Shown: positions 491 to 25,062 of the stretch, piece by piece | Position numbering within the stretch: position 1 is the first letter of the stretch | Layout: every line of letters begins with the position of its first letter | Assembly: GCA_016177805.1 (NCBI GenBank) | Contig: JACOUN010000036.1 | Coordinates: 1 to 28,118, forward strand | Reading direction: 5' to 3' | DNA: 28,118 nucleotides | Source: Rhodocyclales bacterium | GTDB lineage: Bacteria > Pseudomonadota > Gammaproteobacteria > Burkholderiales > Rhodocyclaceae | Translations under genes and position numbers: made by a program | Notes under the pieces: model-generated | What the model was told of the DNA's origin: nothing | The model's input: the letters and a program-made list of their open reading frames with translations, nothing else | Database searches by the model: none

Positions 491-1414
491 TCAGGAGAAA
501 TCCAGGCCGAAGTACTTGAGTTCGATCTGGAGGCGGATGCAGATCCAGTCGTCCTCCTTGGCGATGCTGGCGTAGTGAGGCATGACATATGCCCTGAGAT
601 CGGCGGTCTTGCCTTTCAGCATGCTGTATGCGACGTCCACGTTGGCCGATATCGGGCCGACGAAGCTGGTGGTGACGGTAGTGAAGTTGCTGCCGAGGTT
701 GCCGCTGGCCGGCACGGGCTGGCCGGCGCTGGAGAGGATGGTCAGTCCTGACAGTTCTGCGGTGACGGCAAGGGTGCCGTCGGGGACCTGATGGAGCGTC
801 TGGAATTCCTGGGCCACCATCTTGCGCGGGTTTTCGTCCTTCACCACGTCCCTGAACTTGTAGTTGTTGAAGAACACATGGCGGCCCAGGGCCAGCACCC
901 GGAACGGTCCTTCCTTGATGATGACTTTCTTGTGCGGATCCTGGCCGGGAGCATCGAATTCCTTGGCCTTCTTCAGCACCAGGGCCATGCGTCGCAGGGC
1001 TTCGAGGATCGCACGCAGCGTTTCGGCGGTTGATCCGTGGTTGAACAGGACGATGCCCTGCTCGACGCCCCCTTCATCCAGGGGCTCGAAGTCCTCGGGG
1101 GCAAGCGTTCTGAAAAAGCCGTTCTGCAACTGCTCCCATAGCGCGGTGAAGGTTGGCAGATCTTCGTCGCGCCGGGTGATCTGTCCGTCCAGATAGCTGA
1201 CGAACCGCGAGACCAGCTCCGGTTCGGGCGGGCGGAATGCGATGGTCAGGTCGCGCAGCCAGGCGGCCATGCGCTCGGCCAGTTCGGGCGGGGGCGGTTC
1301 GCCGCGGCCGGGGAGCTGCCCGGCGCAGGCGGCGATCAGGTCGAGGATGCGGGCGCCGAAGGCAAAGGGTTCGGCCAGTGTCAGGTGGTTGTAGCTCTCT
1401 TGGTCTTGAATCAC
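491..1414 (-). CDS. Conserved hypothetical protein (about 307 aa); helical N-half, beta-rich C-half. No domain I can name.
   Basis: Long minus-strand ORF. The preferred start is GTG at 1414, preceded by GAGGGGGA 9 nt upstream; the ORF could extend to 1447. It is co-oriented and lies 116 bp downstream of rtcA. There is no GGQ motif, so it is not PrfH. I see no obvious HEPN Rx4-6H motif. Confidence 0.6.
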   Translation of the reverse strand: MIQDQESYNHLTLAEPFAFGARILDLIAACAGQLPGRGEPPPPELAERMAAWLRDLTIAFRPPEPELVSRFVSYLDGQITRRDEDLPTFTALWEQLQNGFFRTLAPEDFEPLDEGGVEQGIVLFNHGSTAETLRAILEALRRMALVLKKAKEFDAPGQDPHKKVIIKEGPFRVLALGRHVFFNNYKFRDVVKDENPRKMVAQEFQTLHQVPDGTLAVTAELSGLTILSSAGQPVPASGNLGSNFTTVTTSFVGPISANVDVAYSMLKGKTADLRAYVMPHYASIAKEDDWICIRLQIELKYFGLDFS

Positions 1415-1530
1415 GTTCGTTATCCCCCTCAAGTGGTGTGCGGGCACCGACGGCGCGCGCCGTCCGGTGCCGCAGCGGTTGTGGATGTGTTGCCATGGGC
1501 ATTATCGACATGGCCGGCACGATTTCCAGT

Positions 1531-2634
1531 TTAGATAACGCCGGGAGGAATGCAAAAGCTGGTTTGCGATTGGCATGATGACGATGGTTGCCCGGAGGCG
1601 GCAGGGTTCGCGGCAATCCGATGACCCTGTGCCGTCTTGGTCGTCTCGAAGCGCAGCGGCAGAAACCGCTGCACCACCTCCATGTTGGTTTCGAGGTGCG
1701 ATGACAGCGTGGCGGTGGTCAGGCTGCCGCCGCGCGCGAGCGCCAGCGGCAGCACCAGTTGATCGGCCAGGTGCTCGCCGACCGCGGCATCCGAGGCGCG
1801 GTCGGCGCGGGCGGCCTTGATCACGCGCGCGGCGACGGCTTCGGCGGGCAGGCCGCGTTCGCCGAAGGCGACGAACACTTCGGTCACTTCGCTGTGCTGG
1901 TCGACCAGCAGCAACGCGTTGCCTGGTCCTTCGCGAGCGGGCAGGACGCGCAGTTCAACTTCGGCACCCAGCGCGGCGGCTTCCACCATGGTCAGTTCGC
2001 GCCTGGCGACATCCACCGGCACGCCCGCGACCACGGCCACGGCGCGCGCCTGCAGCGGCGTGCCGCGCTCGCACAGATGCAGGGTCTTCAGCGCCGCGAC
2101 CGGGGTGACGCGCGCGCGGATCTCGCCCCCGCCGGCCGGGTAGAAGCCGTGGCGCAGCAGTTCGATGTCCATGTCCACCCCCATGCGGCGCATCAGCGGT
2201 AGCCAGGCGTGGATCAGGAAGTCGGCGGGCGGGGCGGCCGGGTTGTGCGTGCCGCCGCTGACCGTCACCGTGCTCGGCGCGTCGGCAAACCACAGCGCGG
2301 GGAGGATGGTTTGCAGCACCAGGGTGCAGCTACCGGCGCTGCCGATGGCGTGGCGATAGTCGCCGCCACGGATGCGTCCGGGCACGAAGTGCAGTGAGCG
2401 CGAGCCCAGCGCCGCGCCATCCACCCGCGCGCCGCAGATCTGCGCGGCGGCCTGCACGGCGGTCAGGTGCTGGCGCAGCAGCCCCGGTTTGGCGCGGCGG
2501 GCGCGGATGTGGTCGAGGCGCAGCGGCGTGCCGGTGATCATCGACAGCGTCAACGCGGTGCGCAGTATCTGCCCGCCGCCTTCGCCTTGTGAGCCGTCGA
2601 GCGTCACGGTGTCGAGCGTACAGGTGTCAGGCAT
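1531..2634 (-). CDS. rtcA: RNA 3'-terminal phosphate cyclase RtcA, with about 25 extra C-terminal residues compared with E. coli.
   Basis: LDGSQGEGGGQILRTALTLSMITG, RAKPGLLRQHLT and FAIGSAGSCTLVLQTILPALWFA match my recollection of E. coli RtcA closely. The ATG at 2634 overlaps the upstream gene's stop by 8 nt. Confidence 0.95.
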   Translation of the reverse strand: MPDTCTLDTVTLDGSQGEGGGQILRTALTLSMITGTPLRLDHIRARRAKPGLLRQHLTAVQAAAQICGARVDGAALGSRSLHFVPGRIRGGDYRHAIGSAGSCTLVLQTILPALWFADAPSTVTVSGGTHNPAAPPADFLIHAWLPLMRRMGVDMDIELLRHGFYPAGGGEIRARVTPVAALKTLHLCERGTPLQARAVAVVAGVPVDVARRELTMVEAAALGAEVELRVLPAREGPGNALLLVDQHSEVTEVFVAFGERGLPAEAVAARVIKAARADRASDAAVGEHLADQLVLPLALARGGSLTTATLSSHLETNMEVVQRFLPLRFETTKTAQGHRIAANPAASGQPSSSCQSQTSFCIPPGVI

Positions 2635-3445
2635 GGGAGTCTCCGGTCATGACGGTCTGGAGCAGGAAACGGTCGAGCGCCTCCGTGTCGCCTTGCGGCG
2701 TGCGGTAGGAAACGTCGCGGTCGACCTGCGCCAGCATGCCTTCTATGTAGGCGTGGATGGCAGGCCAGCGCGGCCCGTGCTCGGCTTCGCCGACGCGCAT
2801 CTTGACCGCCAGCAGGCGGTTGATTTCGTCGCGCAGGGTTTCGTCACTGATGGTTGCTTGCGCGAGTTCGGCGAAGCGCATCGGCGGCATGCTCCGGTAT
2901 TCGTCGATCCATTGCACCGCCAGCAGCGGGCGCAGCACGTACAGGTACTTTTTCAGACGCACCGTATCGCCCCGCAGATAGCCTTGAAAGTTCTTCTTGG
3001 CCATGGCGAGGTAGTGGTAGCGGCCGCGCATGGGCGAGAAGAACTGCGCCGCCAGCGCGCGCAGGCCGGCGGCGGCATCGGAGCGTTCGCGATAGATCAC
3101 CGGCGAGTCCAGCCATTCGAGCAGGGTCGGGTTGGAGCGGCGCAGCAGGCGCAGCGCCTTGCGCAGCTCCCAGCCGCTGACGTCCAGTTCGTCGCTGATC
3201 GGCAGTTCGATGACGTCGCGCTGCGCTTCGACGCGCAAATACCACGGCATGCGTGGCACGTAGACGAAGCGCACATCGTAGTCGCTGTCGGGCGAGGCGA
3301 AGCCCCAGCCCCGGCTCCCCGACTCGCAGGCGAACAGCACCCGCACCTCGTGGCGGGCCTCGATCTCGTCCAGCGCCTGCATCACGCGCTGGCGTACCGC
3401 CGGGTCTATCGGGTGGGCGGTGAGTATTGTGTTGCTTGTTTGCAT
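2627..3445 (-). CDS. Pol-beta-superfamily nucleotidyltransferase (272 aa); a predicted RNA-repair-associated NTase.
   Basis: The GS-x9-DxD minimal NTase signature is present in CESGSRGWGFASPDSDYDVRFVY. The gene sits between rtcB and rtcA in the same orientation. Its stop overlaps the rtcA start (ATGCCTGA), which suggests translational coupling. Confidence 0.85.
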   Translation of the reverse strand: MQTSNTILTAHPIDPAVRQRVMQALDEIEARHEVRVLFACESGSRGWGFASPDSDYDVRFVYVPRMPWYLRVEAQRDVIELPISDELDVSGWELRKALRLLRRSNPTLLEWLDSPVIYRERSDAAAGLRALAAQFFSPMRGRYHYLAMAKKNFQGYLRGDTVRLKKYLYVLRPLLAVQWIDEYRSMPPMRFAELAQATISDETLRDEINRLLAVKMRVGEAEHGPRWPAIHAYIEGMLAQVDRDVSYRTPQGDTEALDRFLLQTVMTGDSHA

Positions 3446-3482: not shown

Positions 3483-4724
3483 TCATCCTTTCACACACAC
3501 CACCTGACGCAGGGTGTGCACCACTTCCACCAGCTCGCGCTGGGCGTGCATCACCGCGTCGATGTCCTTGTAGGCCATCGGGATTTCGTCGATCACGTCG
3601 CTGTCCTTGCGGCATTCGACGTGGGCGGTGGCGCGCATCTGGTCTTCGATGGTGTAGCGGCGCTTGGCCTCGTTGCGGCTCATCGCGCGGCCGGCGCCGT
3701 GGCTGCAGGAGCAGAAGGCCGCTTCGTTGCCGAGGCCGCGCACGATGTAGCTGCGCGCGCCCATCGAGCCGGGGATGATCCCGAGTTCCCCTTTCTGCGC
3801 CGACACCGCGCCCTTGCGCGTGACCAGCACCTCCTGCCCGTAGTGGCGCTCGCGCTGCACGTAGTTGTGGTGGCAGTTCACCGCTTCCACGTCGGCGGTG
3901 AACGGCTTGGCGATCACCTGGCGCGCGGCGGTCACGACGTTCTGCATCATGGCCTGGCGGTTGCGCCGGGCGTAGTCCTGCGCCCAGCCGACGGCGGCGA
4001 CGTAGTCGTCGAAGTGCGTGCTGCCTTCCTCGAAGTAGGCCAGATCGCGGTGCGGCAAATCGGCGAGGTGCTGGCGCATGTCGGCCTGCGCCAGTTCGAT
4101 AAACACATTGCCGATCGCGTTGCCCACCCCGCGTGAGCCCGAGTGCAGCATGAACCACACCCGGTCGGCCTCGTCCAGGCACACTTCGATGAAGTGGTTG
4201 CCGGTTCCCAGCGTTCCAAGGTGCTTGTAGTTGTTGGTGTTCTTCAGGCGCGGGTATTTCTCGGTGATGCGCGCGAAGCCCGGCTGGAGTGCCTTCCACA
4301 GCGCGTCGACGTTGTCCGGCGGGTTCTCCCACGCGCCCTTGTCGCGGCCGCCGCGTGTCATCGTGCGGCCATGCGGCACGGCGCGTTCGATGGCGTCGCG
4401 CAGTCCGCCGAGCTGGTCCGGCAGATCGCGCGCGAGCAGGGTGGTGCGCGCGGCCATCATGCCGCAGCCGATGTCCACCCCGACGGCGGCCGGAATGATG
4501 GCGCCGACGGTCGGGATCACGCTGCCTATGGTCGAGCCCTTGCCCAGGTGTACGTCCGGCATCACCGCCAGATGGCGGAAGATGAACGGCATCCTGGCGG
4601 TGTTCATGAGCTGCGCGCGCGCTTCGGCTTCAACCGGCACGCCTTGCGTCCACATCCGGATCGGCGCGCCGTTGATCACCTCCAGCAGTTCGGAGGTCGT
4701 GGTGGTGTTGATGTTCGTTTCCAT
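3483..4724 (-). CDS. rtcB: RNA-splicing ligase RtcB (3'-phosphate/5'-OH ligase).
   Basis: Near-colinear identity with E. coli RtcB as I recall it: MWTQGVPVEAEARAQL, MPDVHLGKGSTIGSVIPT, CSCSHGAGR, PMAYKDIDAVM...VVCVKG. It is 413 aa. Confidence 0.97.
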   Translation of the reverse strand: METNINTTTTSELLEVINGAPIRMWTQGVPVEAEARAQLMNTARMPFIFRHLAVMPDVHLGKGSTIGSVIPTVGAIIPAAVGVDIGCGMMAARTTLLARDLPDQLGGLRDAIERAVPHGRTMTRGGRDKGAWENPPDNVDALWKALQPGFARITEKYPRLKNTNNYKHLGTLGTGNHFIEVCLDEADRVWFMLHSGSRGVGNAIGNVFIELAQADMRQHLADLPHRDLAYFEEGSTHFDDYVAAVGWAQDYARRNRQAMMQNVVTAARQVIAKPFTADVEAVNCHHNYVQRERHYGQEVLVTRKGAVSAQKGELGIIPGSMGARSYIVRGLGNEAAFCSCSHGAGRAMSRNEAKRRYTIEDQMRATAHVECRKDSDVIDEIPMAYKDIDAVMHAQRELVEVVHTLRQVVCVKG

Positions 4725-4755: not shown

Positions 4756-5895
4756 TCAGTTGCCCTTGAGTGTGACCAGGCCGTTCAGCACCTGATCCAG
4801 CCCGCCGAACACCGAGATCCGGTCGATCCGCTCCGCCACGCGCTCCAGCGTTTCCAGTTCCTTCAGGCGCAGCGCGGTCGGGTTGTCTTCCATGACCCGC
4901 GCGGTGTTGAGCAGCGAGCGGGTGGCCGAGGTTTCTTCGCGCCGGCGGATGACGTTGGCCTGGGCGGCCTTCTCCGCCTCGACCACCTGCGCGAGTATGG
5001 TGCGCATCTCGCCCGGCAGCACGATGTCCTTGACGCCGAGACTGCGGATCTCGATGCCGAATCCGGCCAGCCGCGTCACCGCGTACTCGCTCACCACCTC
5101 GTCGATGACGCGCTTGTTCTCCAGTAGTTCGTCGAGCGAACGGGTGCCCACCGCCGCGCGCAGCCCGAACTGCAGTTCGCGGTAGAGGTGTTCGACCGGT
5201 TTGGCGAGTTTCTCGCACGCCAGCAACACGTCGGCGTAACGCCAGGTCACGCCCAGGTTGATGCGCAGCGCGACCTTGTCGCGGGTCAGGATTTCCTGGC
5301 CGCTCACTTCCATGTTCTGCAGGCGCGTGTCCACCAGTTCGACCGAGATCTCGCGGTTGAAGCGCCAGTACGCCTCGATGCCGGGGTTCAGCATGCGTTC
5401 CATCCTGCCGTCCATCCTCACTATGCCGACATGGTAAGCCGGAACCTGCGCCAGCAGCACCGCGCCCAGGCCGGCCACCGGCCGGCCGCGCAGGCCGGGC
5501 TGGGTCAGGCGCATCGTCAGCGCGGCCGGCAGGGCGACCGTCTGGCGCAGATCGACCTTCTCCAGCCGGTGCGCGAGCACGCCCTTCCAGATCATGCGCC
5601 GGGTACCCGGCGGCAGGATTTCCACCAGCACGTCATTCTCGTAGCGCAGTCCCGCCTCGTCTTCGGACAGATCCATGATCTCGAAGCAGGATTCGACCAG
5701 ACGGGGTTCGCGGGCACGCAGATACTCACCCAGTTCGACATCGGTGAGCGCCGTGTCGATGCGCCATACCTGCACGCTCAGGCGGTTCATCGGGTCCCAG
5801 AAATAGTGGCGCCCGGCGCTCAGGAGGCGCACGAAATCCCCGTCCTTGAGCAAGGCGGCCTGTTCGTATTTCTTCACCACAAATCTCTTGATCAT
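4756..5895 (-). CDS. SPFH/band-7 (stomatin/flotillin-like) domain protein; first gene of the sigma54-driven rtc operon.
   Basis: The central SPFH core reads LRINLGVTWRY...GIEIRSLGVKDIVLPGEMRTILAQVVEAEKAAQANVIRRREETSATRSL, followed by a coiled-coil-like tail. I prefer the start at ATG 5895 (MIKRFVV), which has a GGAGAA SD 6 nt upstream. The ATG at 5913 lacks an SD. The gene ends 31 bp before rtcB. Confidence 0.88.
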   Translation of the reverse strand: MIKRFVVKKYEQAALLKDGDFVRLLSAGRHYFWDPMNRLSVQVWRIDTALTDVELGEYLRAREPRLVESCFEIMDLSEDEAGLRYENDVLVEILPPGTRRMIWKGVLAHRLEKVDLRQTVALPAALTMRLTQPGLRGRPVAGLGAVLLAQVPAYHVGIVRMDGRMERMLNPGIEAYWRFNREISVELVDTRLQNMEVSGQEILTRDKVALRINLGVTWRYADVLLACEKLAKPVEHLYRELQFGLRAAVGTRSLDELLENKRVIDEVVSEYAVTRLAGFGIEIRSLGVKDIVLPGEMRTILAQVVEAEKAAQANVIRRREETSATRSLLNTARVMEDNPTALRLKELETLERVAERIDRISVFGGLDQVLNGLVTLKGN

Positions 5896-6152
5896 GCTGT
5901 TCTCCAGTTTCATTCATGCGTTGCGTGAGCCGGTCAGCGCCGGCCCGGACGGACGCTTTGCGCGACACACCCAGGGAGGCGGGCGGTGAGCGCTGGGGGG
6001 AGCCACAAACGCGCTGCCCTCCCAGGCTCGCCGCCCGCCTTGCCGCGTGCGCGGCGCAGGGGTCGGTCCGGGCCGGCGACGGGGGCTTGCGCCCACCGCG
6101 ACCGGCGGTTGCTGCTTGACTGCGATGCTTCAGTCGTCTTTTGAGGACGATT

Positions 6153-6216
6153 TGGAGCGGGACTCGAACCCGCAACACGTTGCATATGCAACCGCTCTAC
6201 CCATTGAGCTATCCAG
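6153..6216 (-). ncRNA. tRNA-like element A (64 nt): canonical D-arm and T-arm, with shortened acceptor and anticodon-equivalent arms.
   Basis: Minus-sense sequence: CTGGA TA GCTC AATGGGT AGAGC G GTTGC-ATAT-GCAAC GTGTT GCGGG TTCGAGT CCCGC TCCA. The D-loop keeps the GG pair, and the T-loop TTCGAGT matches T-psi-C-G-A. The anticodon region is a 5-bp palindromic hairpin with a 4-nt loop, so no 7-nt anticodon loop exists. The acceptor helix is only 4-5 bp. It therefore cannot be a functional tRNA. Confidence 0.6.
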
Positions 6217-6265
6217 TGGTGTGCGATCCGGGAATCGAACCCGGATTTCTCAACCATGTCCGCAC
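6217..6265 (-). ncRNA. tRNA-like element B (49 nt): an acceptor/T-arm minihelix ending in an encoded ACCA, immediately 5' of element A.
   Basis: Minus-sense sequence: GTGCGGA CATGGTTGAGAAAT CCGGG TTCGATT CCCGG ATCGCAC A CCA. It has a perfect 5-bp T-stem, a TTCGATT loop and a 6-of-7 acceptor helix. The discriminator and CCA are encoded. It has no D or anticodon arms. Confidence 0.55.
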
Positions 6266-6393
6266 CATGACCGTGTCCTGCTGCCGCGGCATGCGCCAGA
6301 GCCAACGGGATTATTTCCGGGCCAGGCGCACCAGTGGGGCGGATGAACCCCGGCTCGTCGGCGTTGCAGCACTACAGCGGTCGAGCTACCCAT

Positions 6394-6410
6394 AGCGATA
6401 GGCGTGCCAG
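6394..6410 (-). promoter_or_regulatory. Sigma54 (RpoN) -24/-12 promoter for the tRNA-like/SPFH/rtcB/NTase/rtcA operon, divergent from rtcR.
   Basis: Minus-sense CTGGCAC-GCCTA-TCGCT. GG and GC are spaced exactly as in the TGGCAC-N5-TTGCW consensus. It sits 137 bp upstream of the rtcR start, as expected for an RtcR/sigma54 target. Confidence 0.6.
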
Positions 6411-6546
6411 TTGAGCCAGATTGGCGTGATAAATACGCAAGGCATTGAAATAGACGAGTAAATGCATGTTGCAGAAAGATCGTCGCAAGAACGACGCGCC
6501 GGCGTTACTATATGAAAGGCTAGTGAATTATCGTGTGGGATAAGCA

Positions 6547-8139
6547 ATGAAGAAGACGGTGGTGATCGGTTTTCTCGGGACTCAGCTCGACTACTCGGGG
6601 AATGGGGCCAAGCGGTGGGAGAGGTGGCGCCCCACCGTCAGCCTGTGCCAGCACGACGATCTGCTGGTGAGCCGGCTGGAACTGCTGCACGATGCACGTC
6701 GCCGGGGGTTGGCCGAGCGCGTCGCGCTCGACATCGCCAGCGTTTCACCGGAAACGCAAGTGCGCCGGGTTGAAACCGCGATCCGCGACCCGTGGGATTT
6801 CGAGGAGGTGTACACCGCGCTGCACGACTACGCGCGCGGCTACCCGTTCGACGTGGATAACGAGGACTACCTGATCCACATCACCACCGGCACCCACGTG
6901 GCGCAGATCTGCTGGTTCCTGCTGGCCGAGGCGCATTACCTGCCGGCACGGCTGCTGCAGACCTCGCCGCCACGCAAGCAGGCGCCGGCCGATTCGGTGG
7001 GCAGCTACACCCTGATCGATCTGGATCTGTCGCGTTACAACAAGATCGCGCAACGCTTCAGGCGTGAAGCCGAAGAAACCGTGACCCAGCTCAAGTCCGG
7101 CATCGCCACGCGCAACGCGCGCTTCAACGACATGATTGCGCAGATCGAGCACGTCGCCGGGCGCTCCTCCGCGCCGATGCTGCTCATCGGCCCGACCGGG
7201 GCGGGCAAGTCGTTTCTGGCCCGGCGCATCTTTGAGCTGAAGGTGCAGCGTCAGCGTTTCGCGGGTCGCTTCGTCGAAATCAACTGCGCCACGTTGCGCG
7301 GCGATTCAGCCATGTCGGCGCTGTTCGGTCACGTCAAGGGGGCGTTCACCGGGGCGCAGAGCGAGCGGCCGGGGTTGTTGCGTTCGGCGCATCAGGGGTT
7401 GCTGTTTCTCGATGAAATCGGGGAATTGGGCCTGGATGAGCAGGCCATGCTGCTCAAGGCGGTCGAGGAGAAACGCTTCTTCCCGTTCGGCGGCGACCGC
7501 GAGGTGGATAGCGACTTCCAGCTCATCGCCGGAACCCACCGCGATCTGCGGCAATGGGTGGCCGAAGGCCGTTTTCGCGAAGACCTCTACGCCCGCATCA
7601 ATCTGTGGACCTTCGATCTGCCGGGGTTGGCGGCGCGGCGCGAAGACATCGAACCGAACATCGATTTTGAACTGCGCCGCTATGCCGAAGCCGAAAACCA
7701 GCAGGTGCGCTTCAACGTCGAAGCGCGTCAGGCTTACTTGCGCTTCTGCAGCTCTGCCGAAGCGCGCTGGCCCGGCAATTTCCGCGAGCTGTCCGCGTCG
7801 ATCACGCGCCTGGCGACGCTAAGCGATGCGGGGCGCATCACCGTCGAGCATGTGCACGAGGAGATCGCCCGCCTGCGCCGCAGTTGGGGGGGGGATGAGT
7901 CCGGGGGCGGAGTGCTGAGCGCATTGCTGGGTGAGCGTGCGGAACAGATCGATCTGTTCGATCGCGCCCAGTTGTCCGCCGTGATCGCGGTGTGCCAGGC
8001 GTCGAACAGCCTGTCCGACGCCGGGCGCAAGCTGTTCGCGGTGTCACGTCAGGGAAAGAAGCAGCCCAACGACGCGGACCGGCTGCGCAAGTATCTGGCG
8101 CGATTCGGTCTGGATTGGGCTGCGCTCAGCGGCGCTTGA
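6547..8139 (+). CDS. rtcR: RtcR: a sigma54-dependent transcriptional activator with an N-terminal CARF domain, a AAA+ sigma54-interaction domain and a C-terminal HTH.
   Basis: The N-terminus (MKKTVVIGFLGTQLDYSGNGAKRWERWRPT...IASVSPETQV...PWDFEEVY...YLIHITTGTHVAQICWFLLAEA) matches my recollection of E. coli RtcR. Walker A GPTGAGKS and an ESELFGH-like SALFGH motif are present. Confidence 0.95.
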   Translation: MKKTVVIGFLGTQLDYSGNGAKRWERWRPTVSLCQHDDLLVSRLELLHDARRRGLAERVALDIASVSPETQVRRVETAIRDPWDFEEVYTALHDYARGYPFDVDNEDYLIHITTGTHVAQICWFLLAEAHYLPARLLQTSPPRKQAPADSVGSYTLIDLDLSRYNKIAQRFRREAEETVTQLKSGIATRNARFNDMIAQIEHVAGRSSAPMLLIGPTGAGKSFLARRIFELKVQRQRFAGRFVEINCATLRGDSAMSALFGHVKGAFTGAQSERPGLLRSAHQGLLFLDEIGELGLDEQAMLLKAVEEKRFFPFGGDREVDSDFQLIAGTHRDLRQWVAEGRFREDLYARINLWTFDLPGLAARREDIEPNIDFELRRYAEAENQQVRFNVEARQAYLRFCSSAEARWPGNFRELSASITRLATLSDAGRITVEHVHEEIARLRRSWGGDESGGGVLSALLGERAEQIDLFDRAQLSAVIAVCQASNSLSDAGRKLFAVSRQGKKQPNDADRLRKYLARFGLDWAALSGA

Positions 8140-23684: not shown

Positions 23685-24887
23685 TTACCAGGACGTTTCG
23701 CGCTCGGCCGTGGACGAGATCTTGTGGATGGACAGGTCGGCGCCGGCGAACTCTTCCTCGGCATCCAGGCGCAGGCCGATGGCGGCCTTGATCGCGCCAT
23801 ACACCACCAGCCCGCCCGCCAGCGCGATCGCGATGCCGGCCAGTGTGCCCGCCAGTTGCGACATCAGGTTGACGCCGCCCAGGCCGCCCAGCGTGGCGCT
23901 GCCGAAGATGCCCGCCGCGATGCCGCCCCACGCGCCACACAGCCCATGCAGTGGCCACACGCCGAGCACATCGTCGATGCGCCAGCGGTTCTGCGCCTGG
24001 GTAAATAGCAGCACGAACATCCCTCCGGCGACGACGCCGACCACCAACGCACCAAGCGGGTGCATCAGGTCCGAGCCGGCGCATACCGCGACCAGCCCGG
24101 CGAGCGGGCCGTTGTGCACGAAGCCGGGGTCGTTGCGCCCGACCGCGAGCGCCGCCAGCGTGCCGCCGACCATCGCCATCAGCGAGTTCAGTGCCACCAG
24201 GCCGTTGATCGCTTCGAGGCGCTGCGCGCTCATCACGTTGAAGCCGAACCAGCCCACCGCCAATATCCACGCGCCCAGCGCGAGAAAGGGAATGGACGAG
24301 GGGGGGTGGGCGGAAATGGCGCCGTCCTTGTGGTAGCGACCGCGCCGTGCCCCCAGCAGCAGCACTGCCGGCAAGGCGATCCAGCCACCGAAGGCGTGCA
24401 CTACGACGCTGCCGGCGAAGTCGTGGAAGGGGTTGCCGAAGGTGGTTTCCAGCCATGCCTGGAAGCCGAAGTTGCCGTTCCACACCATGCCTTCGAAGAA
24501 CGGGTAGACGAAGCCGACGATGAGAAAGGTCGCGATCAGTTGCGGGCCGAAGCGCGCCCGCTCGGCGATGCCGCCCGAGACGATGGCCGGAATGGCGGCG
24601 GCGAAGGTCAGCAGAAAGAAGAACTTGACCAGCTCATAGCCGGAGTTGGTCACCAGTTCGGTGGCGCTGCCGAAGAAACTGGTGCCGTAGGCGATGGCGT
24701 AGCCGACGGCGAAGTAAGCCAGCGTCGACATCGAGAAATCGCTGATGATCTTCACCAGCGCGTTGACCTGGTTCTTCTTGCGCACCGTGCCGACTTCGAG
24801 AAAGGCGAAGCCCGCGTGCATGGCGAGCACCATGATGGCGCCCAATAATACGAAAAGAACGTCGGCCGAGGTCTTGAACTGCTCCAT
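23685..24887 (-). CDS. amt: Ammonium transporter (Amt/MEP family), 401 aa.
   Basis: The product starts MEQFKTSADVLFVLLGAIMVLAMHAGFAFLEVG, with 11 TM helices and a conserved C-terminus. Its start is ATG 24887. The six-frame ORF is over-extended to 25049. Confidence 0.92.
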   Translation of the reverse strand: MEQFKTSADVLFVLLGAIMVLAMHAGFAFLEVGTVRKKNQVNALVKIISDFSMSTLAYFAVGYAIAYGTSFFGSATELVTNSGYELVKFFFLLTFAAAIPAIVSGGIAERARFGPQLIATFLIVGFVYPFFEGMVWNGNFGFQAWLETTFGNPFHDFAGSVVVHAFGGWIALPAVLLLGARRGRYHKDGAISAHPPSSIPFLALGAWILAVGWFGFNVMSAQRLEAINGLVALNSLMAMVGGTLAALAVGRNDPGFVHNGPLAGLVAVCAGSDLMHPLGALVVGVVAGGMFVLLFTQAQNRWRIDDVLGVWPLHGLCGAWGGIAAGIFGSATLGGLGGVNLMSQLAGTLAGIAIALAGGLVVYGAIKAAIGLRLDAEEEFAGADLSIHKISSTAERETSW

Positions 24888-24922
24888 GAGTGTGCTCCGG
24901 GTATGCGTAACCGGGGGCACCA

Positions 24923-24938
24923 AGCAGATCGCGTGCCA
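24923..24938 (-). promoter_or_regulatory. Sigma54 -24/-12 promoter for amt.
   Basis: Minus-sense TGGCAC-GCGAT-CTGCT with correct GG/GC spacing, about 35 nt upstream of the amt ATG. Confidence 0.5.
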
Positions 24939-25023
24939 CAAGTGGTTGTTATTTAAATACAACGAACTGCCGTTCGGCCGCACTGCGATTGGGCGTGCAA
25001 GGCACGACCGTGGTGCGTGGCGG

Positions 25024-25062
25024 GCACCATCACGGTGCACGGCGCGCACCGTGATGGCGTGC
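25024..25062. promoter_or_regulatory. Two NtrC-type palindromic enhancer sites (GCACC-N5-GGTGC), themselves forming a larger inverted repeat, about 100 bp upstream of the amt sigma54 promoter.
   Basis: GCACCATCACGGTGC and GCACCGTGATGGCGTGC. The half-sites match the NtrC consensus TGCACC/GGTGCA. Confidence 0.45.

Follow-up and report, generated by a model that had tools for sequence, protein, structure and literature searches.

The DNA analyzed is a stretch of 28,118 nucleotides (nt) from a Rhodocyclales bacterium (contig JACOUN010000036.1), hereafter the window, and the region under study is the 633-nt space between slipin and rtcR in its RNA-repair locus. According to a Pfam scan, slipin, rtcB, rlaP and rtcA lie on the minus strand, with slipin (an SPFH/Band_7 gene) as the first open reading frame (ORF) of the operon, and rtcR is divergent on the plus strand (Table 1). 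The space between them holds a sigma-54 promoter element that faces slipin, and the leader predicted downstream of it is composed of five consecutive modules, named A, B1, B2, hairpin H and C, which keep a fixed order beside the slipin gene and are separated by linkers of 2-18 nt; this structured array takes about 455 nt of the transcript and is followed by a free ribosome-binding site and the slipin ORF.

Regarding the material for comparison, 80 loci were fetched, each encoding a close relative of the slipin; rtcR is divergent in 54 of the 80, and the intergenic distance there is 590-745 nt. The slipin homologues are 60-95% identical, are named "slipin family protein", and begin with MIKRF or MLKRF; for this reason, the slipin start was placed at the ATG at 5895-5893 (MIKRF...), and the first in-frame ATG, at 5913, was discounted. 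ATGs at 5917 and 5913 (5911..5917, minus strand), in frame or nearly so, occur upstream of the start supported by the homologues, and therefore mechanical ORF calling lengthens the slipin gene by six codons into the spacer. The start at 5895 is about 488 nt from the predicted transcription start near 6383, in agreement with the leader of about 490 nt reported in a preliminary description of this DNA.

Table 1. Genes and noncoding features of the rtcR-slipin locus (positions in the window; SD, Shine-Dalgarno sequence; IHF, integration host factor).
Feature	Position	Strand	Basis or remark
rtcR, sigma-54 activator with RtcR/CARF N-terminal domain	6547..8139	+	Pfam RtcR E = 8e-87, Sigma54_activat E = 1e-48
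Palindrome TTATC-N6-GATAA	6528..6543	.	3 nt before the rtcR ATG, ~120 bp upstream of the -24 element
IHF-like site TTTCAATGCCTTG (consensus WATCAANNNNTTR)	6438..6450	-	Putative, by sequence; ~36 bp upstream of the -24 GG
Sigma-54 -24/-12 promoter CTGGCACGCCTATCGCT	6394..6410	-	Motif read and conserved position; GG 6408-6407, GC 6396-6395
Module A, 114-nt structured RNA domain	6269..6382	-	RNAalifold, covariance model, individual folds
B1, reduced tRNA-like element	6221..6265	-	Alignment of 58 leaders; RNAalifold consensus
B2, "band-7-associated tRNA" type	6153..6215	-	Rfam tRNA match, cloverleaf consensus
Hairpin H, UCGUC-CUCAAAA-GACGA	6134..6150	-	Directly after B2; no U tract downstream
Module C, 187-nt GC-rich RNA, three-way junction	5929..6115	-	RNAalifold, individual folds, nhmmer
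Unstructured spacer with SD GGAG (5905-5902)	5896..5928	-	Precedes the slipin ATG (5895-5893)
slipin (SPFH/Band_7), first ORF of the operon	4756..5895	-	Pfam Band_7 E = 3e-25
rtcB	4724..3483	-	Pfam RtcB E = 1e-128
rlaP (PF10127)	3445..2627	-	Pfam RlaP E = 6e-96
rtcA	2634..1531	-	Pfam RTC E = 3e-83

As for the promoter, its core element, TGGCACGCCTATCGCT, runs from 6409 to 6394 on the minus strand, with C6410 before it; it agrees with nine of the ten consensus positions (TGGCAC-N5-TTGCW) at the exact spacing, and it is 137 nt from the rtcR ATG (6547), facing away from rtcR. The preliminary description had placed such an element here and had proposed its conservation in related genomes as a check, and both points held. 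At essentially every locus with divergent rtcR, TGGCACG-N4-T[C/G/T]GC[A/T] is present at a distance of 120-160 nt from rtcR, with the SPFH start 420-540 nt downstream of it; overall, a -24/-12 element occupies the equivalent position in about 60 of the 80 loci (Rhodocyclales, Thiobacillus, Gallionellaceae, Pseudomonas, Paraburkholderia and Chitinilyticum), and it is missing only from loci without an adjacent rtcR. From the usual spacing to the -12 element, transcription is predicted to start at 6384-6382, near 6383. In the whole window, TGGCAC-N5-TNGCW has two matches against 0.21 expected; the second, TGGCACTGAACTCGCT (24181..24196, minus strand), is about 850 nt inside an ammonium-transporter (amt) ORF (23685..25049, minus strand). 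amt genes are often under sigma-54 regulation; this match is probably due to chance.

The DNA upstream of the promoter has two further features. The palindrome close to the rtcR ATG is a candidate RtcR binding site (upstream activating sequence): 51 aligned upstream regions keep TTATCCAnAAAGATAAAT at its position, with the strict form in 22 of the 51 and the relaxed form TAT[C/A]-N5-9-[G/T]ATA in 47. RtcR bound to it would also cover the translation-initiation or 5' untranslated region of its own gene, and this could provide autoregulation. The second feature is the IHF-like site, whose core (TCAR-N4-TTR) occurs 28-41 nt upstream of TGGCAC in 36 of the 51 loci. An adjoining gene for a bacterial enhancer-binding protein, a putative IHF-like site and a candidate palindrome are the standard anatomy of an enhancer-dependent promoter, and the prediction of an RtcR/sigma-54 promoter facing slipin-rtcB-rlaP-rtcA is well supported.

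The leader downstream of this promoter is conserved over nearly its whole length, with evident paired substitutions, even though the 62 leaders aligned are 35-59% identical overall; the flanking genes are 60-77% identical across the related loci, and the leader folds into a much more stable structure than shuffled sequence does (z = -6.2). Module A, the first part of it, begins at the predicted transcription start, and at all loci with rtcR no more than a few nucleotides lie between its beginning and the start predicted for sigma-54. It is closed by a stem in which GACCG (6382-6378) pairs with CGGUC (6273-6269), and its interior comprises a second stem, a junction, a GGGG/CCCC hairpin and a long hairpin, with CCGGUGCG and AUGCCGC as invariant motifs. 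Of the 22 inner pairs in the RNAalifold consensus, 17 show compensatory changes, and 93.8% of the alignment cells are paired versus 39-49% in the slid controls. A covariance model that takes in the outer stems (R1) found exactly one copy in 80 of 81 sources, located in each case upstream of slipin; in these 80 sequences, 83% of the cells are paired (36-52% when slid), and the cells with double changes number 587 versus 108-159. Finally, the ends of Module A are closed by a stem in 42 of 48 individual folds.

The two elements that follow Module A had both been described as tRNA-like, a designation that holds for B2, which passes the Rfam tRNA cut-off, and that needs to be qualified for B1, which in this organism is a partial mimic. 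In B1, GUGCG (6265-6261) and CGCAC (6225-6221) form an acceptor-like stem, which is accompanied by a weak hairpin and by the T arm CCGGGUUCGAUUCCCGG (6244-6228). By eye, the acceptor-like stem covaries (UGCG/CGCA, GGCA/UGCC, GAGG/CCUC, GACG/CGUC), and the T arm appears in the RNAalifold consensus; two T-arm-like elements are present in 47 of 62 leaders, and in Pseudomonas relatives the slot of B1 is filled by a full cloverleaf with a D arm. B2 scores 40.8 bits with the Rfam tRNA model (RF00005; cut-off 29, model positions 4-67), and one Rfam tRNA match per leader was found in 14 related loci. Its D and T arms have canonical loops, its acceptor stem is of 4 bp (UGGA/UCCA) and its "anticodon" loop of 4 nt, and it has an AAA tail without a CCA end; in the cloverleaf consensus, the anticodon stem covaries. 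Across 54 loci, the acceptor stem of B2 varies from 3 to 7 bp (mostly 4-6) and the loop of the anticodon arm from 3 to 9 nt, being of 7 nt in 17 loci only, and a CCA end occurs in none of the 54. ARAGORN called no tRNA on B2, and among the loci tested its anticodon calls vary (Met, Ile, Thr or undetermined). Judged by its sequence, B2 is not a working tRNA, because of its short acceptor stem, its variable loop with no conserved anticodon, its lack of a CCA end and the lack of an ARAGORN call.

B2 corresponds to what has been termed the band 7-associated tRNA, or b7a-tRNA for short, namely a tRNA-like RNA adjoining a Band-7/SPFH gene in an RtcB-type neighborhood, following the definition as relayed in bioRxiv 10.1101/312249. 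Phage copies of B2 were also considered: a scan of viral contigs with the B2 pattern gave four matches, all of them ordinary tRNA-Met or tRNA-Ile, with no slipin, Rtc genes or Modules A and C nearby, and this line was left as uninformative. Directly after B2, the small hairpin H was found to be real, one base away from the coordinates first assigned to it (6135..6151); a hairpin of at least 4 bp is present at this position in 49 of 54 leaders, and its stems differ in sequence (UGCC, UGUC, AGCC, CGUC and others) and covary.

The largest module is C, which accounts for the GC-rich segment of the leader (80% G+C, compared with 65% for the whole window). After a conserved motif at its 5' side, GCAGCAACCGCCGG, it folds into a three-way junction in which P1 joins 6106-6100 with 5935-5929 (GCCGGUC/GACCGGC), P2 is a hairpin (6099-6079) with a GCAA loop here and a GNRA loop in the homologues, and P3 (6078-5938) is a long rod whose base (CGCCGGCCCGGAC/GUCCGGGCCGGCG) and internal loop (GGCAAGG//CCUCCC) are conserved and whose tip varies; the duplex is long, GC-rich and nearly perfect, with blocks of 13 and 10 bp. 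The three-way junction is common to all of 14 diverse homologues folded singly. In the alignment of 42 sequences, RNAalifold found 37 consensus pairs, 32 of them compensatory; 92.2% of the cells are paired (29-46% when slid), double-change cells are 242 versus 33-59, and none of 500 shuffles attains the observed values. nhmmer gave one match per locus, in 60 of 81 sources and in 53 of the 54 loci with divergent rtcR. The preliminary description had suggested that the leader may hold further RNA structure, and had pointed to the covariance of the GC-rich segment in orthologous loci as a way to see it: such structure is indeed there, with both Module C and Module A covarying strongly. Past Module C, a spacer of 20-57 nt, rich in A and G, leads to the slipin start, and in 29 of 30 loci the SD-like sequence is outside the module. 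The conserved CCUCCCC of Module C was considered as a free anti-SD mimic, and this candidate was dropped because the sequence is paired with GGCAAGG around a 2x2 internal loop in the rod.

The absence of a credible ORF in the GC-rich stretch, reported at first sight, was borne out, as Module C has no conserved ORF. For the leader ORFs on both strands, coding conservation amounted to weak translated matches, of 31-57% identity, in 0-19 of the 80 loci; these were equally good on both strands, as expected of conserved RNA-coding DNA, and a coding leader was rejected. No family of Rfam 15 matches Modules A or C at the curated cut-offs, and short-range scans of the window and of the locus of Pseudomonas nitroreducens (L048) at E ≤ 10 returned implausible fragments of microRNAs, small nucleolar RNAs or riboswitches for these modules, none of which recurs in the same module between the two loci. 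In the literature on slipin/RtcB RNAs, on the Pseudomonas aeruginosa element PA4581.1 (discussed below) and in surveys of structured RNAs, no description of Modules A or C was found, with the proviso that a prediction of 2016, known second-hand, may cover more. Modules A and C appear to be undescribed, and the promoter and the tRNA-like RNA are of known kinds. On the whole, the preliminary description was confirmed, with small corrections of coordinates; its "structured leader" is correct and understated, and what it called an "unusually long" leader is more aptly seen as a series of noncoding RNA (ncRNA) modules that precede the first ORF, because the modules are conserved and structured and attenuator features are missing.

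The modules differ in what they accompany across the loci. In 19-20 loci of Burkholderiales (Roseateles, Aquabacterium, Ramlibacter and others), both the adjacent rtcR and the sigma-54 motif are lacking, and some of these loci (e.g., L055) also lack rtcB downstream; all the same, Module A and the tRNA-like elements are kept directly upstream of slipin, behind a co-directional gene and a hairpin. Modules A and B thus follow the slipin gene and not the promoter. In these loci, a different conserved 3' structure substitutes for Module C, and the version of Module C found here follows the RtcR/sigma-54 arrangement in the loci compared, a link that is inseparable from phylogeny. As further observations on these Burkholderiales (L055 3500..4012, L062 3500..4003, L077 and L059), the substitute 3' module has the hairpin GGUCGAAAGACC and the motif CUGUAACGGCACCC; in L055, the genes downstream of slipin encode a Tll0287-like/HAMP protein and a Ser/Thr kinase instead of rtcB; and in the loci inspected (L055 in detail), an ORF without a Pfam match, ending in ...WLAARLPKGSRLS, stands directly before Module A. 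In L062 (2145..2705), a metagenome-assembled genome of Aquabacterium, an array of six tRNA genes of canonical appearance (Asp, Phe, Arg, Pro, His, Glu) lies just upstream of the unannotated ORF, and tRNA-Glu and tRNA-Asp are in the equivalent place in L055.

Among the known systems, the nearest in its RNA is the b7a-tRNA, predicted near Band-7 and RtcB genes by Burroughs and Aravind in 2016, lacking experimental validation as of 2018, and said to swap occasionally with YrlA/Rsr, all as related in bioRxiv 10.1101/312249. In P. aeruginosa, the element between rtcR and PA4582-PA4585 is annotated as tRNA-Arg4, PA4581.1, and it has no CCA (PMC13637947). In both cases, the likeness is that of a CCA-less tRNA-like RNA that immediately precedes a Band-7/SPFH gene within an RtcB operon beside rtcR, to which B2 corresponds; the difference is that the accessible literature has one tRNA-like element, whereas here there are two, along with Module A, Module C and the hairpin, all of them conserved.

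The closest functional parallel is the rsr-yrlBA-rtcBA operon of Salmonella, which is controlled by RtcR and sigma-54 and includes Y RNAs, of which one carries a tRNA-like domain (PMC7790460). It shares with the present locus the divergent rtcR, the sigma-54 operon and the embedded ncRNAs, one with a tRNA-like domain, and the proposed logic is also similar, with an RNA-binding scaffold protein, its cognate RNA, and RtcB/RtcA. The differences are that slipin here replaces Rsr and that the RNAs precede the first ORF rather than follow it; in addition, the tRNA mimics of this locus are linear cloverleaves, whereas the YrlA fold is permuted, and nothing in YrlA or YrlB corresponds to Modules A and C. 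No Rsr/TROVE domain was detected in the 30 long ORFs of the window that were scanned. With the Rfam YrlA model (RF02553, cut-off 69 bits), the window scores 20.2 bits (6245..6194, minus strand) and the P. nitroreducens locus 33.5 bits (3614..3676), and membership in the YrlA/Y RNA family was rejected, given scores far below the cut-off and no Rsr gene. These weak matches span the junction of the tandem tRNA-like elements, running from the T arm of the first through the linker into the D arm of the second; it is a speculative idea that the circularly permuted tRNA-like domain of YrlA arose from such a tandem pair, or that the pair adopts an alternative, YrlA-like fold.

The rtcBA operon of Escherichia coli has an ordinary, short leader and is not known to contain embedded RNAs or a slipin, unlike the present locus with about 490 nt of structured RNA before the first ORF. 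The two have in common a -24/-12 promoter activated by a divergently encoded RtcR; for the sigma-54 promoter of E. coli, PMC12776372 and PMC8619066 refer to Genschik et al. 1998. Overall, the present locus is a variant of the theme of an RNA-repair operon with embedded noncoding RNAs.

As for the slipin itself, no transmembrane segment was predicted, and in the structure model a beta-rich N-terminal region of about 195 amino acids (pLDDT ∼80) precedes the SPFH domain and a long helix; the model as a whole has a pLDDT of 64, i.e., moderate confidence. Its best Foldseek matches are ordinary stomatin, HflK/C and prohibitin, and a match to rabbit major vault protein (MVP) has E = 3e-8 over 413 columns with a TM-score of 0.22 and 14% identity. 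The lack of a transmembrane segment, the beta-rich region, the matches to the cages of stomatin, HflK/C and prohibitin and the weak MVP match would fit a soluble scaffold, which is to be taken as a lead only. The vault particle, in which MVP has an SPFH-like shoulder and is accompanied by vault RNAs, is similar in that a soluble SPFH protein with a beta-rich N-terminus is found beside small structured RNAs; given the low TM-score and identity, the moderate model and the better matches elsewhere, this is a resemblance only. For the same reasons, that is, a moderately confident model and a Foldseek match too weak, an MVP-like N-terminal domain was dropped as a foundation for the interpretation. 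Directly downstream of rtcA, on the same strand, a 318-amino-acid ORF (491..1447, minus strand) has no Pfam match, and it might be a further member of the operon.

Taken together, the data lead us to favor, by a slight degree of belief, an arrangement in which RtcR and sigma-54 drive a precursor that carries the ncRNA partners or scaffolds of a soluble slipin and of the repair enzymes, and not a simple on/off switch. RtcR would bind upstream, probably at the TTATC-N6-GATAA palindrome, with the DNA bent at the IHF-like site, and would activate the sigma-54 RNA polymerase at TGGCACG-N4-TCGCT, so that transcription would begin near 6383. The first ∼455 nt of the transcript would then be the head-to-tail array of Module A, B1, B2, the hairpin and Module C, and slipin translation would start from the free ribosome-binding site beyond it. 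The modules, we infer, are produced along with the proteins, either as one composite RNA or after processing, and act as RNA partners or scaffolds of the slipin-RtcB-RlaP-RtcA proteins, paralleling YrlA/YrlB and Rsr in Salmonella. They are read as ncRNA partners because of their tRNA-like features, of a linkage to slipin that persists whatever the promoter, of the occasional swaps reported between b7a-tRNA and YrlA in the systems of Rsr and Band-7, and of the lack of switch features.

However, it should be noted that several points weigh against this arrangement. In this organism, the transcription start, the co-transcription, the processing and the stability of the modules are predictions from the DNA, and the binding of any module to slipin or RtcB is a proposal only. 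Pairing in the outer stems of Module A is less regular, at 60-71% of the cells, than in its inner helices. Module C stands in every case just before the ORF, a position that fits a cis-acting role too. Lastly, in P. aeruginosa, whose leader layout may differ, quantitative reverse transcription PCR (qRT-PCR) found PA4581.1 at about half the level of a normal tRNA and unchanged upon strong induction of the Rtc proteins (PMC13637947), which speaks for an additional promoter, a high stability of the RNA, or a control exerted downstream of the RNAs. The main rivals are a cis-acting Module C and an independent expression of the tRNA-like RNAs; the P. aeruginosa data favor either of them, or a very stable RNA.

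In the first of these rivals, which we regard as unlikely, Modules A-C, or C alone, would form a cis-regulatory leader, a sensor or attenuator that sets the amount of slipin, RtcB, RlaP and RtcA independently of the tRNA-like RNAs; it could be riboswitch-like, an operator bound by a protein, a site of processing by RNase III, or a structure acting on Rho or on ribosome access. Such a role would agree with the place of Module C, which in all 60 loci that have it lies just upstream of the ribosome-binding site of slipin, with its GC duplex, which could be an RNase III substrate, with its replacement by another 3' module where rtcR is not adjacent, and with the uncoupling of the tRNA-like RNA from Rtc protein induction in P. 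aeruginosa. The preliminary description raised the possibility of an attenuator gating the protein-coding genes, and this has no support in the sequence: on the transcribed strand, no intrinsic-terminator-like site was found between the promoter and slipin; the terminator scan listed hairpin H as terminator-like on the opposite strand only, and H lacks a U tract; and both the SD and the start codon lie in the unstructured A/G-rich spacer past Module C. Likewise, no conserved alternative pairing was noticed in the leader, although no systematic search for it was made, and a tRNA-like fold whose D and T loops are conserved is typical of RNAs recognized in trans; the association of Module C with rtcR, for its part, is confounded with phylogeny, as said above. 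On this basis, an attenuator or an SD-sequestering leader is not supported by the predicted features; a ligand- or protein-dependent control by the leader is possible, and so is a separate control of the leader RNAs and of the proteins.

The second rival, to which we assign a low probability, holds that the tRNA-like elements, and perhaps Module A, are independent small-RNA genes with their own constitutive promoter and processing, that sigma-54 transcription reads through them, and that their location is historical. PA4581.1 is indeed annotated as a tRNA gene and is detectable without induction and unchanged upon it (PMC13637947), and it ranked with the most up-regulated genes of a late cystic-fibrosis isolate (PMC8743555); moreover, the Burkholderiales modules lie behind a co-directional gene with no sigma-54 motif. 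Against it, Module A abuts the predicted sigma-54 start at all rtcR loci and therefore leaves no room for a separate promoter between them, the linkers among the modules are very short, and a crude consensus scan of 5600..6800 found no sigma-70-like site. Finally, it is scarcely credible that the region has no function and consists of decayed tRNA genes with GC-rich filler or a repetitive palindromic element, and of a sigma-54 match by chance: GC-rich genomes do yield long hairpins and spurious ORFs, and the match inside the amt ORF (24196..24181) means that chance matches do occur, but position-specific conservation spans about 60-80 genomes of two proteobacterial classes, the compensatory changes run to hundreds and far exceed the shuffled and slid controls, and, each module being present once per locus and at a constant position (nhmmer, covariance model), none is a dispersed repeat, so that repetitive extragenic palindromic elements and miniature inverted-repeat transposable elements were rejected as sources of the GC hairpin.

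Returning to the ncRNA partners of slipin and the repair enzymes, the finding bears on bacterial RNA repair by RtcB and RtcA, for which the substrates, the cofactors and the role of the Band-7/slipin proteins are still poorly defined. If this interpretation is true, the RNA component of the slipin-type Rtc systems would be far larger than the single tRNA-like RNA predicted so far, and Modules A and C would stand as a pair of structured RNA motifs that are new and have good support, the former being upstream of slipin in every related locus whose upstream region is available. For genome annotation, the modules account for an intergenic region of about 630 nt that otherwise appears "empty", and for the odd tRNA gene that genome pipelines call there. 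More tentatively, and as a conjecture with less than an even chance of being right, the previously undescribed multi-domain ncRNA of about 455 nt may be the dedicated partner of a soluble, cage-forming, vault-like (MVP-like) slipin, in a bacterial ribonucleoprotein that would present damaged RNAs, or keep them protected, for RtcB, RlaP and RtcA, with Modules A and C as two new structured-RNA families; its logic would be that of Ro-Y RNA and vault RNA, and the slipin-type Rtc operons would offer a direct parallel to Ro-Y RNA biology.

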